Shown: positions 12,001 through 18,000 of the stretch, piece by piece
Position numbering within the stretch: the stretch's first letter is position 1
Layout: every line of letters begins with the position of its first letter
Assembly (NCBI RefSeq): GCF_988242995.1
Contig: NZ_OZ547043.1
Strand: one strand, 5' to 3'
Length of the DNA: 64,000 nt
Made by a program: the position numbers

Positions 12001-15000
12001 TCTACCGCTGGCCTCACGCTTTACTTGGTAATGACCCGGCACCACAAACGACGAATATTTTCAGCCATCTTCTTTTACCCTCCACGTCATCGTTGTTAAT
12101 TTGGTTTCCGTGTCTATTCCTGGTTTGTGGATGGTTATATCTCTGGAAGCGCAGGCCGCAATTTACGCCAGTAGATGTGATTGAAACCGATGTCATTCCG
12201 CCAGATTACACGCCCGGCATGTTACGTCTCGATGCGAAGCTGGTTTACGACGATAAAGGTTTTTGTGCCGATATTGTAAATCTGATTGTGAAAGGCAAAA
12301 TTCATATGGAAGATCAGTATGACAAGAACCAGCAAATCCTGATTCGTGTTAATGAAGGCGCGACCAGAAATAATGCGGTTTTACTGCCCGCAGAGCAGTT
12401 TTTACTGGAAGCGTTATTTCGTAAAGGCGATAAGGTCGTTCTTACGGGGAGACGCAATAGAGTCTTACGCAGGGCATTTTTACGGATGCAGAAATTTTAT
12501 CTGCCGCGTAAAAAGTCTTCGTTTTACCGACCTGATACGTTTTTGCAATGGGGCGGAATGGCAATATTGGCGGTCATTCTCTACGGTAACCTGAGTCCCG
12601 TAGGCTGGGCAGGAATGAGTCTGGTGGGCGATATGTTTATTATGATCTGCTGGCTTCTTCCTTTTTTATTTTGTTCCCTTGAGCTTTTGTTTGCCCGCGA
12701 TGATGACAAGCCTTGCGTTAATCGTGTAATCATCACTTTGTTTTTACCACTGATTTGTTCAAGCGTGGCCTTCTATTCTCTCTATATCAATGTCGGAGAT
12801 GTATTCTTTTACTGGTATATGCCAGCGGGTTATTTTAGCGCTGTTTTCCTGACCGGTTATCTCACTGGCATAGGGTATATTTTTCTGCCAAAGTTTACCC
12901 AAATTGGGCAGCAACGTTATGCCCACGGTGAAGCTATCGTTAACTATCTTGCGCGTAAAGAGGCGGCAACACACAGTGGGCGGCGGCGGAAAGGGGAAAC
13001 ACGGAAACTGGATTACGCATTGTTAGGTTGGGCGGTCTCGGCAAACCTTGGCAGAGAATGGGCAGAACGTATCACCCCATCACTCACAGCGGCTGTTAGC
13101 GCCCCGGAAATTGCCCGTAGTGGCGTTTTATTCTCATTGCAGACGCACCTGAGTTGCGGGGCCTATACCAGTTTGTTGGGGCGAAGCTATTCCGGTGGTG
13201 GTGCTGGCGGCGGTACGGGTGGCGGAGGCGGTGGTGGTTGGTAACCAAATCGACGTTAATCGAAACAAGCTTTAACCATAAAGATAGTGTAGTATGTTGC
13301 GCCTCAAAGCCAGGCCGATAAACGTCGAGTCGTTTACTTAAGGCCTGAAGAGTTCAAACAGACTTTACTATCAGTGAGTCAGATGTAAGTTCTGACTCAT
13401 TGTTGCACAAAAGCATATCAGACGCCTGGGAAGGCGACACCAAAAGGAAGCTCTATGAGCGAAAAGCTACAGAAAGTGCTGGCGCGTGCCGGCCACGGTT
13501 CTCGCCGTGAAATCGAATCTATTATTGAAGCCGGTCGTGTGAGTGTTGATGGCAAAATTGCTAAACTCGGCGATCGTGTTGAAATTACCCCTGGATTGAA
13601 AATCCGTATCGATGGTCACCTGATTTCGGTACGTGAGTCCGCTGAACAAATTTGTCGCGTTCTGGCCTATTACAAACCGGAAGGTGAGTTGTGTACCCGT
13701 AACGATCCGGAAGGACGTCCAACGGTGTTTGACCGTCTGCCAAAACTGCGTGGCGCACGCTGGATTGCCGTGGGTCGCCTGGACGTTAATACCTGTGGTC
13801 TGCTGCTGTTCACCACCGATGGTGAACTGGCAAACCGTTTAATGCACCCAAGCCGTGAAGTTGAACGTGAATATGCCGTGCGTGTATTTGGTCAGGTTGA
13901 CGACGCGAAACTGCGTGATTTGAGTCGTGGCGTGCAGCTGGAAGATGGTCCGGCAGCCTTTAAAACCATCAAGTTCAGCGGCGGCGAAGGGATCAACCAG
14001 TGGTACAACGTAACTCTGACCGAAGGCCGTAACCGTGAAGTTCGTCGTCTTTGGGAAGCGGTTGGTGTGCAGGTAAGCCGCCTGATCCGTGTTCGTTACG
14101 GTGATATCCCACTGCCGAAAGGTCTGCCACGCGGTGGCTGGACGGAGCTGGACCTCGCCCAGACTAACTATCTGCGCGAACTGGTGGAGCTACCGCCAGA
14201 AACCAGCTCTAAAGTCGCTGTAGAAAAAGACCGTCGTCGTATGAAGGCGAATCAGATTCGTCGAGCGGTTAAGCGTCACAGTCAGGTGAGCGGCGGTCGT
14301 CGTTCTGGTGGACGTAATAATAACGGTTAATTTAAGATAAGTATAAAATAAAGGCCCTGCGGGGCCTTTTCTTCATTTGAAGCATGATAAATAGTCGCAG
14401 TATTTTAATTTAATTTCATACTTGCTTATGAATAATACCCGGAAATAGCCACATTACTATTTAATTATCTGAGATAAACTCAACGTCAAGAGGTGGGTTA
14501 TGATTAGATATAGTGGAATATTTCTATCGCTGTTAATGCTTTCAGGTTGTGCAACTGAAGCATTGAAAAACGAACAAGCTGAAACTGTTATTACTGCGGG
14601 TAACAAAGCAGTAGCGGCGAATGCAAGTTTCTTTAAACAATACTATGCTTCTCGTGAAAACTTCCTTGTTAATTTTTATGCGACTAATCCGGATTGTGCA
14701 CCTCGACCAGATTATGAGGTAGTTATTGAAAACAGTACCAGTGATGAGTCATTATGTCAGCAACCTGGAGATAAGCACAAAAAATCTCAAGAAGATCTTT
14801 TTATTACAAAGATAGTCGCTACTGAAAAAGAAAGATTGCTGGCTTCTATGGAAATCATTAGCAGTATGAGTTCTTATGTCGAACTTTTGAATGAGGATTT
14901 AGATGTTAAAGACAGCAAACAGTTCATATTGCTTAAACAAGCTCTGGATCACGCGAATAATGCGGGGGCACTTCTGGGCATCAATGATGGTGGAACATTA

Positions 15001-18000
15001 ACAAAATCTGCAGCAGCGGTTAAAGATTTAGTGGTTTATTTCAATGGGTTGTATAATACAAGGGTAAGCGCAGGGAATATAGGTAGTACGGTAAATAATC
15101 ATTGGCAAAGAATAAAAAATGATCTAACTGATATACGAAACGATATCGCGACAAAAGGTAAACAAACTGGAAGAAATACCTTTGCGACGGTACATAATAA
15201 TCTCGTTTATTACAATGCCTCCTTAAAAAAAGGAGGAGGTAATGAATTTAAGACATTGAAGAGCAGACAAGAATTCCTGGCTGCGATTATCAGTATTAAT
15301 GAAACACGTCTTCGTGCAGCAGATCCAGCTATTCCAGCAATACAAGCACTGAACTCATTTCTTGACGAGGGGAATCACCTTAAGGATTTATACACTAATA
15401 AAATACGCACAGCGGCTGAACAAAAAAGGCTAAATGAAATATTACGCGCACAGGTCATTAGTGGGTTAAAGGCGTCTGAGGGGCTGGCAAAACTACTTAT
15501 TGCCAGCGGAATAATGTTATAGGAGGGGCTTTTTATGAACGATGTACAAAACCGTAGAATATTGGCATTACTTGATATGCTGTATAATACTCTGGGCAAC
15601 AAAACCACATGCAAGGTTTGTCATAAATATTTTATCCTTATCCTCACGGTGATGAACAATCTGACGATTAACTACGGTACTGAAACTTCGCCAGAGTTAA
15701 GCGGAATCAGTTATGAAGATGCCAATGCGTTAATTACTGAACTGATATTATTTATTGAAGATGTTGACGCTGAGAATCATGAAGCATATCCGGGACATTT
15801 GAATGAGATTAAACGGATTCTGAGTTTTGCTATTGCCGCTTGAATATAATTATGATTAAAGCACCTCAAGAGGCGATCTTTTGAGGTGCTTTCACTTAAT
15901 AATCAATCCCTATTTGCGCCTTAACACCGGCATCAAACGCATGTTTGATGGGGCGCAGCTCACTTACCGTATCCGCCAATTCAAGAATATCCCGATGACA
16001 ACCACGACCCGTGATAATCACCGTCTGTTGATGTGGACGTTCATTTAACGCCTGCACCACTTCTTCCAGTGGCAAATAGTCATACGCCACCATATACGTC
16101 AGTTCATCGAGCAAAACCATATCCAGTGAAGGATTGGCAAGCATCCGCTTTGCATGTTGCCAGACTTCGCGACAGGCGGCGGTATCAGACTCGCGGTTTT
16201 GTGTATCCCAGGTAAAGCCCGTTGCCATCACCTGAAATTCAACGCCGTGTGGTTCCAGCAGATTTCGTTCGCCATTAGGCCAGGCGCCTTTAATAAACTG
16301 CACGACGCCCACTTTTTTTCCGTGACCAACTGCGCGTGTTGCCGTACCAAATGCCGCGGTGGTTTTGCCTTTTCCATTGCCGGTAAAGACGATGATAATA
16401 CCGCGTTCATCCTGGGCCTGGGCCACACGAGCATCGACTTTTTCTTTCACTCGCTGCTGACGCTGTTGGTAGCGTTCATCACTCATTGGGAAATTCCTGG
16501 TTTACGGCCCGGTTGGGCGTCAAAGGTCATGCCGGTTTTACGGCGGCTGTCATCACCCATCAGCCAGAGGTAGAGCGGCATGATATCAGCGGGTGTTTTA
16601 AGTTTCTGTGGATCTTCGGTCGGGAAGGCGCTGGCACGCATTGCGGTGCGCGTACCGCCTGGGTTAATGCAGTTGACGCGCAGGCGCTGCTGATATTCAT
16701 CGGCCAGTACCTGCATCATCCCTTCGGTGGCAAATTTCGACGCTGCATATGCGCCCCAGTTTGCACGCCCCTGACGTCCAACGCTTGATGAAGTAAAGAC
16801 CAGTGAACCCGCGTCCGATTTGAGTAATAAAGGAAGCAGTGCCTGGGTGAGCATAAAGGTAGCATTAACGTTGACCTGCATGACGTCCTGCCAGACCTGC
16901 GGATTTTGTTCGCTCATTGGGCAAACATCGCCGAGCAATCCGGCATTATGCAAAACACCATCCAGACGCGGATAATTAACGGCAATGCGCTGCGCCAGTT
17001 GTTGGCAATCTTCGGACGTGCAGGTCAGCAAATCGAGAATAAACCACTGTGGCTGACGCCCAGTTTCTTCGTTTATGTGGCTGGCTACCTGACGTAATTT
17101 TTCTTCATTACGGCCTAACAGAATCACTGTCGCACCATAGCGTGCATACGTCATCGCGGCTTCACGGCCAATACCATCGCTGGCTCCCGTCACCAGGATA
17201 ATGCGATCATTGAGTAAATCTTGTTTTGGCTGGTAATGCATGGCTACTCCTCAACGACGTTGTCTGTCGCGCTGCCAGTGTACTTTATGACTTTGGGGCT
17301 TTATGCCTGAAACAGAAGGGCATTTCAATCAGCCTGGGGCGATAACACCGCAAAATGGATACTTTGTCATACTTTCGCTGCAATAACATCTCTGCGAGAC
17401 GGCTTAACATGCCTGTTGTAAACTGTCAGCCAAAGCGTTGTTTAACCAAGGTGGGGACTCGTGGAATTGTTGTCTGAATATGGTTTGTTTTTGGCGAAAA
17501 TCGTTACCGTTGTGCTAGCGATTGCGGCGATTGCCGCCATTATTGTCAATGTTGCTCAACGTAATAAACGCCAGCGTGGCGAGTTACGGGTCAACAATCT
17601 CAGCGAACAGTATAAGGAGATGAAAGAAGAACTGGCCGCGGCGCTGATGGACTCACATCAGCAAAAACAGTGGCACAAAGCGCAGAAGAAAAAGCACAAG
17701 CAAGAAGCGAAAGCAGCAAAAGCGAAAGCCAAACTGGGCGAGGTGGCAACTGACAGTAAACCTCGCGTCTGGGTGCTGGATTTTAAAGGCAGCATGGACG
17801 CCCATGAAGTGAACTCGCTACGTGAAGAGATAACGGCGGTACTCGCAGCATTCAAACCGCAGGATCAGGTTGTGCTACGTCTGGAAAGCCCTGGTGGCAT
17901 GGTGCATGGTTACGGGCTGGCGGCTTCGCAGCTGCAGCGTCTGCGTGATAAAAACATTCCTTTAACTGTTACGGTAGACAAAGTCGCTGCCAGTGGCGGT

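Follow-up and report, generated by a model that had tools for sequence, protein, structure and literature searches.

Between rluB and the convergent btuR/cobO gene of Escherichia coli, the 64,000-nucleotide stretch analysed here (the window; contig NZ_OZ547043.1 of NCBI RefSeq assembly GCF_988242995.1) carries a two-gene cassette that encodes a 340-amino acid lipoprotein precursor (open reading frame (ORF) A) and a 102-amino acid acidic protein (ORF B). This is a genuine, intact operon subject to purifying selection, with a ratio of nonsynonymous to synonymous divergence (dN/dS) of 0.1-0.26, and occurs in E. coli as three deep, mosaic allele classes alongside an empty state. The evidence largely shows an old Escherichia locus, polymorphic in both presence and allele and found rarely in Citrobacter, and we are confident of this anatomical and evolutionary description. 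The explanation that we consider best as a whole, in which this old polymorphic operon has a role in envelope protection, is held tentatively.

A first-pass annotation of the sequence had described an islet rich in adenine and thymine (AT-rich) at this position, with a lipoprotein signal peptide on the 340-residue product and a CxxCH motif in the 102-residue product, and the ORF calls confirmed this layout. ORF A (14500..15522, + strand) is followed 12 bp downstream on the same strand by ORF B (15535..15843, + strand), whose strong Shine-Dalgarno sequence (AGGAGG, 15521-15526) overlaps the ORF A stop codon. This spacing bears out the tight two-gene operon proposed earlier, and ORF B is predicted to be co-transcribed with ORF A. 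The composition also departs from that of the surroundings, as had been anticipated by eye: the fraction of guanine plus cytosine (GC) is 0.373 in the islet compared to 0.506 for the 64-kb window, GC at third codon positions (GC3) is 0.29 for ORF A, 0.37 for ORF B and 0.46-0.54 for flanking genes, and rare codons make up 0.068 of ORF A compared to 0.004-0.036 of flanking genes. The interval between rluB and cobO holds these two ORFs only, with no integrase, transposase or transfer RNA (tRNA) gene.

Low-stringency blastn found the two-gene interval in 1234 of 5426 complete E. coli genomes (23%), with at least 80% coverage for every match counted, and an intact empty junction of the K-12 type in 4182 of the 5426 (77%). 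IS1 insertions were among the few genomes that had neither the cassette nor an intact junction. K-12 MG1655 has 39 bp between the rluB and btuR stop codons, in line with the K-12 order in which btuR directly follows rluB; its spacer contains an unrelated hairpin and has no intergenic sequence in common with the islet. The cassette was chromosomal with one exception and lay at rluB-cobO in all records inspected. Three plasmid entries in PLSDB matched ORF A (CP054249.1, CP054253.1 and NZ_CP134663.1), and were set aside as probable chromosomal sequence under a plasmid label: the trp operon lies on CP054249.1, and NZ_CP134663.1 measures 4.9 Mb. IS1 was also seen within the empty rluB-cobO spacer of strain Ec-U3 and interrupting the islet of strain 3385. 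NRG 857C has the empty junction and EC958, of sequence type 131 (ST131), has the cassette; both presumably belong to phylogroup B2, and presence or absence is therefore perhaps no simple phylogroup marker.

RefSeq names both products 'hypothetical protein' in all records, apart from a label given to ORF B in some genomes, 'amino acid kinase family protein', for which we found no Pfam or NCBIfam support. None of the papers found in a literature search named the locus, its RefSeq protein accessions or the rluB-btuR interval.

The cassettes of E. coli fall into three allele classes that differ by ~30% at the nucleotide level within flanks that are 96-100% identical. Class I, the allele in the window, is 100% identical to that of strain GF60 from chicken meat; class II is found in EC958, AR_0077 and ETEC4071; class III is found in E5 and DETEC-S792, where ORF A has 333 amino acids. 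Approximating class sizes by bands of identity to the window allele, not by genome-by-genome classification, class I accounts for only 33 genomes (identity of at least 95%) and is thus rare, the 80-90% band that includes the class III strains holds 88 genomes, and the 60-80% band that includes the class II strains holds 1113.

A multiple alignment from rluB through yciK located the divergence precisely. Identity between strains was 95-100% up to ~14655, at ORF A codon ~52-65, dropped to 56-74% in 150-bp windows from there to 15855, and returned to 90-99% in cobO and yciK. Relative to class II, the hyperdivergent block thus spans 14655..15855 (+ strand), from early in ORF A to the end of ORF B; relative to class III it ends near 15400 already. 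By the Nei-Gojobori method, ORF A had dN of 0.22-0.26, dS of 0.85-1.3 and dN/dS of 0.18-0.26 between classes, many of these dS values being lower bounds because of saturation, compared to a dS of 0.006-0.12 for rluB and yciK in the same strains. ORF B gave dN/dS of 0.05-0.18 where it was computable. Classes I and III have the last ~40 codons of ORF A and the whole of ORF B in common (96% nucleotide identity), and their ORF A cores are 74% identical, so the alleles are mosaics produced by recombination within the operon. Together, this pattern leads us to infer balancing selection on the allele classes.

The neighbouring cobO gene showed an elevated dS of 0.07-0.41 between strains, as would follow from its linkage to an old polymorphism. 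Its 3' half (15855-16300) is 90-95% identical between E. coli strains including K-12, compared to 96-100% for rluB and yciK, and this divergence may have arisen by hitch-hiking on the polymorphism next door or be a scar left by recombination.

The first-pass annotation had attributed the composition and placement of the islet to horizontal acquisition. Atypical composition and patchy distribution, both typical of mobile islands, were found here, and no integrase, flanking repeats or tRNA; a repeat scan of 14200-16100 gave no att-like pair at the islet junctions, and the two-copy matches in that interval were 10-18 nt long, a length expected by chance. The accessory character of the module therefore stands on its composition and its presence in 23% of genomes, and a recent insertion does not, given the lack of mobility genes and the occupation of the same site in other species. 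Two assemblies of E. albertii and its type strain carry the pair at rluB-cobO, as do E. whittamii, Citrobacter sp. ANG330 and three Citrobacter-like metagenome contigs. Class II and E. albertii differ by a dS of 0.79 in ORF A and 0.45-0.51 in ORF B, which matches the dS between E. coli and E. albertii in the flanks (0.62-0.76 for rluB, 0.48-0.61 for yciK) and argues for vertical descent from a common ancestor. Class III and the E. whittamii allele share ~97% protein identity, and the cassette junctions are identical in all carriers.

The hairpin on the rluB side tells a similar history. This GC-rich structure 3' of the rluB stop codon (AAAGGCCCTGCGGGGCCTTT, 14343..14376, no strand assigned) marks the 5' edge of the islet-type intergenic DNA, and appears terminator-like on both strands with a core at 14350-14369. 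All E. coli classes and E. albertii retain it and Citrobacter has a recognisably similar one, whereas the K-12 hairpin differs. A recent horizontal insertion of a genomic islet into an ancestral K-12-like rluB-btuR junction, which is a proposal about origin and not function, would account for the low GC and atypical codon usage, for the absence of the cassette from 77% of E. coli genomes including K-12, and for the presence of the cassette type on mobile elements elsewhere. It would leave unexplained why integrase, transposase, tRNA and flanking direct repeats were not found at the locus, why every carrier has the same junctions, why E. albertii, E. whittamii and Citrobacter carry the pair at the same site, why class II and E. 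albertii have diverged as much as their flanks, and why the rluB terminator held in common with Citrobacter is of the islet type and not the K-12 hairpin, and we judge it highly unlikely. The simplest history is instead that of an old locus, lost with remodelling of the spacer in the lineages that form 77% of sequenced E. coli, with alleles kept across species or else exchanged between them. By its low GC the cassette DNA is compositionally foreign, any acquisition being older than the genus, and an ancient foreign origin would be compatible with an old locus.

The DNA ahead of ORF A has changed far less than the coding core. Across Escherichia alleles, the 170-bp stretch from rluB to ORF A is 96-98% identical, compared to ~60-70% for the coding cores, and the inter-class alignment defined a conserved leader/promoter region at 14377..14499 (+ strand). 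The leader contains a palindrome (TTCATA-cttgct-TATGAA, 14415-14432), and conserved blocks including this palindrome are kept in all Escherichia alleles and in Citrobacter. ORF A has its own Shine-Dalgarno sequence (GAGGTGG, 14489-14495). A simple scan of the leader gave no sigma-70 consensus promoter, and Rfam gave chance-level matches only. Such conservation points to an operator or promoter in the leader, with the palindrome as a candidate operator.

The lipoprotein signal of ORF A is clear: the N-terminus (MIR-YSGIFLSLLM-LSG, given in full as MIRYSGIFLSLLMLSG, and then C) fits the lipobox pattern [LVI][ASTVI][GAS]C, with codons 1-16 as the signal peptide and Cys17 (14548-14550, + strand) as the lipobox cysteine. 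ORF A is accordingly predicted to be a Sec/Lgt/LspA-type lipoprotein with a mature mass of ~35.6 kDa. An aspartate at position +2 causes retention in the inner membrane, and other residues lead to the outer membrane via the Lol pathway. ORF A has alanine at +2, and none of the 37 family members with a lipobox recognised by pattern scan has aspartate there, so ORF A is predicted to reach the outer membrane by that route.

Among 44 aligned homologues with 14-68% identity to ORF A, only C17, C66, C86 and Y126 are invariant, the lipobox cysteine being present in 44 of 44, and the alignment contained no conserved set of catalytic-type His, Asp or Ser residues. Cys66 (14695-14697, + strand) and Cys86 (14755-14757, + strand) bracket a variable beta-hairpin and probably form a periplasmic disulfide. 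AlphaFold2 (AF2) modelling from the 44-sequence alignment (mean predicted local distance difference test score (pLDDT) 76.6, predicted template modelling score (pTM) 0.71) produced long helices and a single beta-hairpin (73-77/100-104) between and just past the invariant cysteines; a model from 15 close sequences had a pLDDT of 49.8 and was unusable. Residues 1-65, which cover the signal peptide and first helix, are identical in protein sequence across the three E. coli classes, and the least conserved parts are residues ~70-105 (26-37% protein identity) and then ~185-255. ORF A is thus predicted to be a non-enzymatic helical bundle in which the hairpin and central helices are hypervariable.

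Neither protein was assigned to a family, in agreement with the earlier failure to recognise one. ORF A and ORF B had no match in Pfam, NCBIfam, PADLOC, PHROGs or PDB sequences (searched as single proteins, and also as profiles for PDB), and neither the 44 ORF A homologues nor 13 partners had a significant Pfam match. Searching 5.8 billion proteins with a word index returned 27 ORF A clusters and 15 ORF B clusters, all from Escherichia, Citrobacter, or unnamed metagenome and sequencing-run sequences.

ORF B has an isoelectric point of 4.8 and no signal peptide. Its highest 19-residue Kyte-Doolittle window is 1.06, which means it has no transmembrane segment, and since it has no export signal it is presumably cytoplasmic; it is probably helical. 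The CxxCH motif noted in the first pass is present as C26-K-V-C29-H30. C29 is the same in every ORF B protein of the Escherichia/Citrobacter clade, with C26, H30 and H88 close to invariant, and these Cys and His residues could form a small metal site. Two more specific readings of the motif were rejected. A heme-c site is at odds with the lack of an export signal and with absence of the motif from distant positional counterparts, and Pfam gave no cytochrome match; for a C2H2 zinc finger there was only a sub-threshold match to ZBTB24 (E-value (E) 0.056), with the H-x3-H half missing. No toxin domain was recognisable in ORF B.

To place the pair in a wider context, an exhaustive ORF A profile search of 1.84 billion representatives returned 60 proteins, ~35 of which are full-length lipoproteins of 324-357 amino acids with 14-25% identity to ORF A. 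Those looked up came from Buttiauxella, Raoultella, Klebsiella, Rahnella, Pantoea, Methylomonas, a Chlorobiaceae metagenome-assembled genome and metagenomes; all are annotated as 'hypothetical', in clusters of 1-18 members. Six of nine distant homologues examined (from Buttiauxella, Raoultella, Methylomonas and metagenomes) have a signal-less ORF of 96-107 amino acids downstream, with a gap of 0-26 bp or a 4-bp overlap. Of the other three, one has a 269-amino acid partner with C-terminal transmembrane helices, one, on a metagenome contig, has a 773-amino acid signal-less partner (7035-9356) with a metzincin-like HEIGHALNLAH motif and weak M10/M12 Pfam matches only, and one has a partner cut by the contig end. 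On the same contig as the 773-amino acid partner, a Trypco2-domain gene lies ~2.3 kb downstream (11619-11960). ORF B and the distant partners have at most a loose N-terminal helix pattern in common. Homology between them is not demonstrable, so the arrangement is conserved and not the sequence.

The two-gene arrangement therefore recurs in distant taxa, including one prophage moron. The Buttiauxella pair is a low-GC moron (0.34-0.40 compared to 0.55-0.61) lying exactly between the tail-completion gene S (gpS) and the baseplate gene V (gpV) of a P2-like prophage, at the orf30 site. The S-V junction is a recognised moron site, one of three moron regions in P2-like phages (PMC6823313), and the validated anti-phage hotspot of these phages lies beside cos and not at S-V (PMC9122126). 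The window copy differs in being outside any prophage, and the S-V cargo of P2 (orf30) and R18C is unrelated to the cassette and likewise functionally uncharacterised. Another distant pair adjoins a DDE transposase, and another shares its island with VapBC, Fic and a Y1 transposase. From these heterogeneous contexts, the pair behaves as an autonomous accessory cassette, and its AT-richness together with the P2 moron homologue suggests that this cassette type circulates on mobile elements and that the Escherichia copy was captured long ago. A second low-GC patch was seen in the Buttiauxella prophage (8801-9600, 0.43-0.44 compared to ~0.6), with a Peptidase_C92 gene on the opposite strand between tail genes that is probably another moron.

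Compact autonomous two-gene cassettes that are AT-rich and strain-variable, with distant homologues at a P2 moron site and in a VapBC/Fic island, could also be intracellular anti-phage or abortive-infection systems, or toxin-antitoxin pairs, that sense infection and kill or arrest the cell. PADLOC gave no match for ORF A or ORF B, and for 10 distant homologues it gave two chance-level matches (E 0.006 and 0.04) and nothing among the neighbours at the distant loci. ORF A is moreover an exported lipoprotein with no enzymatic motifs, the two proteins are predicted to be in separate compartments, gene order and sizes are unlike those of type II toxin-antitoxin systems, and no nuclease, NTPase, TIR, SIR2 or similar domain was found. 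We consider an intracellular system of this kind very improbable.

The small partner raised the possibility of an orphan effector-immunity-like pair away from any secretion locus, with ORF A as a periplasmic immunity lipoprotein and ORF B as a small delivered effector or its remnant. A lipoprotein facing the periplasm, a partner that never has a signal peptide, and a constant lipoprotein paired with a variable partner (usually ~100 amino acids, once 269 and once 773) would fit such a pair, and deep allelic diversity with presence/absence polymorphism is typical of them. However, no vgrG, hcp, PAAR, Rhs or CDI gene is located beside the window locus or the nine distant loci, no N-terminal delivery domain was found, and the neighbours in the window are housekeeping genes. 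ORF B is acidic, only 102 amino acids long and lacks a recognisable toxin domain, and an immunity protein of 340 amino acids that is more conserved than its effector would be unusual. Classes I and III carry the same ORF B with different ORF A cores, the opposite of cognate co-variation. We regard an effector-immunity pair as distinctly unlikely.

In fold, the closest proteins to ORF A are the DUF3829/YiiG-type and 'imelysin-like' lipoproteins, which are also ~330-350 amino acids long, all-helical and of uncharacterised function; the papers found on DUF3829/YiiG left it uncharacterised. The best non-self match to the AF2 model was a DUF3829-annotated Yokenella protein (Foldseek against AFDB50, E 3e-11, template modelling score (TM) 0.75, 19% identity). 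The best DUF3829-annotated matches, at 16-19% identity, may themselves belong to the ORF A family, and other DUF3829 matches had TM of 0.36-0.5. In contrast to DUF3829 (PF12889) and imelysin (Peptidase_M75), neither ORF A nor the 44 family members match the Pfam models, and the conserved HxxE metal-binding motif of imelysin is absent from the ORF A family. Aligning the ORF A family profile to K-12 YiiG with hhalign paired only 22 signal-peptide residues (probability 3.9%), and YiiG is a single core gene whereas ORF A is part of a variable two-gene cassette. On the model, the resemblance of ORF A to DUF3829-type lipoproteins would be structural only.

This likeness is consistent with an ordinary, non-conflict envelope lipoprotein (for binding, stress or assembly) encoded with a small cytoplasmic protein, dispensable and drifting fast in a recombination-prone spot. 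Same-size proteins annotated as DUF3829, 'imelysin-like' or 'lipoprotein' have a similar fold (Foldseek E 1e-11 to 1e-7, TM 0.66-0.75), synteny among housekeeping genes is stable across three Escherichia species and Citrobacter, the conserved leader with its palindrome suggests host regulation, and selection is purifying overall. An allele dS that exceeds the flank values ~10-fold, in a sharply bounded block, is not a pattern that mere drift gives, however, and the strong AT bias with GC3 of 0.29, a rare and patchy family whose distant-taxon clusters number 1-18, and homologues that occur as a prophage moron and beside transposases also argue against an ordinary role, which we rate as unlikely.

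Two groups of characterised lipoproteins suggested a different role. T5 Llp, phi80/N15 Cor, lambda Bor/Iss and plasmid TraT act in superinfection exclusion or lysogenic conversion; they are outer-membrane lipoproteins, come from AT-rich accessory genes or morons, and protect the cell envelope. ORF A resembles them as an AT-rich, predicted outer-membrane lipoprotein with a homologue that is a P2-like prophage moron. Llp, Cor, Bor and TraT are single genes encoding ~60-250 amino acids with no sequence or fold relation to ORF A, whereas the cassette joins a 340-residue helical bundle to an obligatory-looking small partner, presumably cytoplasmic, at a fixed chromosomal site. The variant groups of fHbp in Neisseria and the OspC types of Borrelia are allele-polymorphic surface lipoproteins under balancing selection, and share several traits with ORF A: a few deep mosaic classes with protein identity of ~65-70%, an N-terminal anchor region that is conserved, intragenic recombination breakpoints, and alleles common to sister species. 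ORF A differs from fHbp and OspC in the null state of 77% of E. coli and in having no sequence or fold relation to them, and its exposure at the surface and recognition by antibodies are hypothetical.

Of the functional readings we lean, with low confidence, towards envelope protection or exclusion by ORF A, assisted or regulated by ORF B. This reading is favoured because the exported hairpin and helices are what varies, because the polymorphism is old and trans-species, and because a homologue is a phage moron. ORF A in the envelope would bind or mask a target used by outside antagonists; the receptor-binding or injection machinery of phages, bacteriocins or tailocins, effectors delivered by contact, and molecules of host immunity are candidates. 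Pressure from the antagonist would then keep three recombining classes and the null state by balancing or negative-frequency-dependent selection. ORF B would most plausibly serve in the cytoplasm as a dedicated helper or regulator; classes I and III differ in the ORF A core yet share ORF B, which makes specificity partner of the variable region an unlikely role for it. A bolder version, which we think improbable, is a new autonomous two-gene envelope-defence cassette in which the hypervariable, disulfide-bounded face of an outer-membrane helical-bundle lipoprotein would block a specific class of invaders (phages at adsorption or injection, tailocins or bacteriocins, or effectors delivered by contact) alongside the small cytoplasmic helper, forming a trans-species balanced polymorphism of three specificities plus null, and a prophage moron elsewhere.

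Several results weigh against envelope protection. No 30-codon window of ORF A has dN/dS above 1, and the peak, ~0.6-0.7 in the hairpin region, falls where dS is saturated, so diversifying selection is not demonstrated; introgression between Escherichia species could be an alternative source of deep alleles. The cassette is missing from 77% of strains, and some copies are truncated or interrupted by IS1. Exclusion lipoproteins such as Llp and Cor are single small genes, and it is not obvious what a partner in the cytoplasm would contribute to a mechanism in the envelope. That partner is also not traceable at distance, with an hhalign probability of 0.2% between ORF B and the distant small partners and a profile search that returned only its inputs. 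For both proteins, PADLOC-DB v2 returned nothing up to an E of 1. A single prophage carries the phage link: tblastn of 50,697 phage records with ORF A and the prophage homologue as queries found no relatives, two scans of IMG/VR contigs found none, and a BFVD fold search gave nothing below E 0.009.

Roughly a quarter of complete E. coli genomes carry this unannotated operon, including the pandemic ST131 strain EC958 with its class II allele, and with alleles that are mosaic, trans-species and diverged beyond their flanks the locus looks, in population genetic terms, like one exposed to an external antagonist. Should the lipoprotein turn out to act in exclusion or protection, envelope-level defence would gain a new protein family and a two-component architecture, and the locus would offer a natural three-allele-plus-null system for studies of specificity. 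If it has no such role, it would be an ancient accessory locus that seems a recent island only since the reference strain lost the cassette.

The genes on either side anchor these comparisons. Upstream, the conserved rluB gene (13455..14330, + strand), with a dS of 0.02-0.11 within E. coli, ends just before the hairpin described above, and downstream the conserved btuR/cobO gene (15896..16486, - strand) converges on the operon. A second hairpin (AAAGCACCTCAAGAG/CTTTTGAGGTGCTTT, 15858..15892, no strand assigned) fills the space between the ORF B stop codon and the convergent cobO stop codon and forms the 3' edge of the islet, so that hairpins flank the cassette on both sides, as first noticed, at 14343-14376 and 15858-15892. 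The E. coli classes and E. albertii retain the downstream hairpin and a Citrobacter-like contig has part of it; it is probably a shared bidirectional terminator.

On the other side of rluB, yciQ (window 11349-13244; DUF2207, 631 amino acids) has a GC of 0.47 with stretches of 0.41-0.46. In E. coli and E. whittamii this gene separates yciO from rluB; rluB comes directly after yciO in E. albertii and Citrobacter, with no yciQ there. The lipoprotein cassette is thus adjoined by a second lineage-variable gene.

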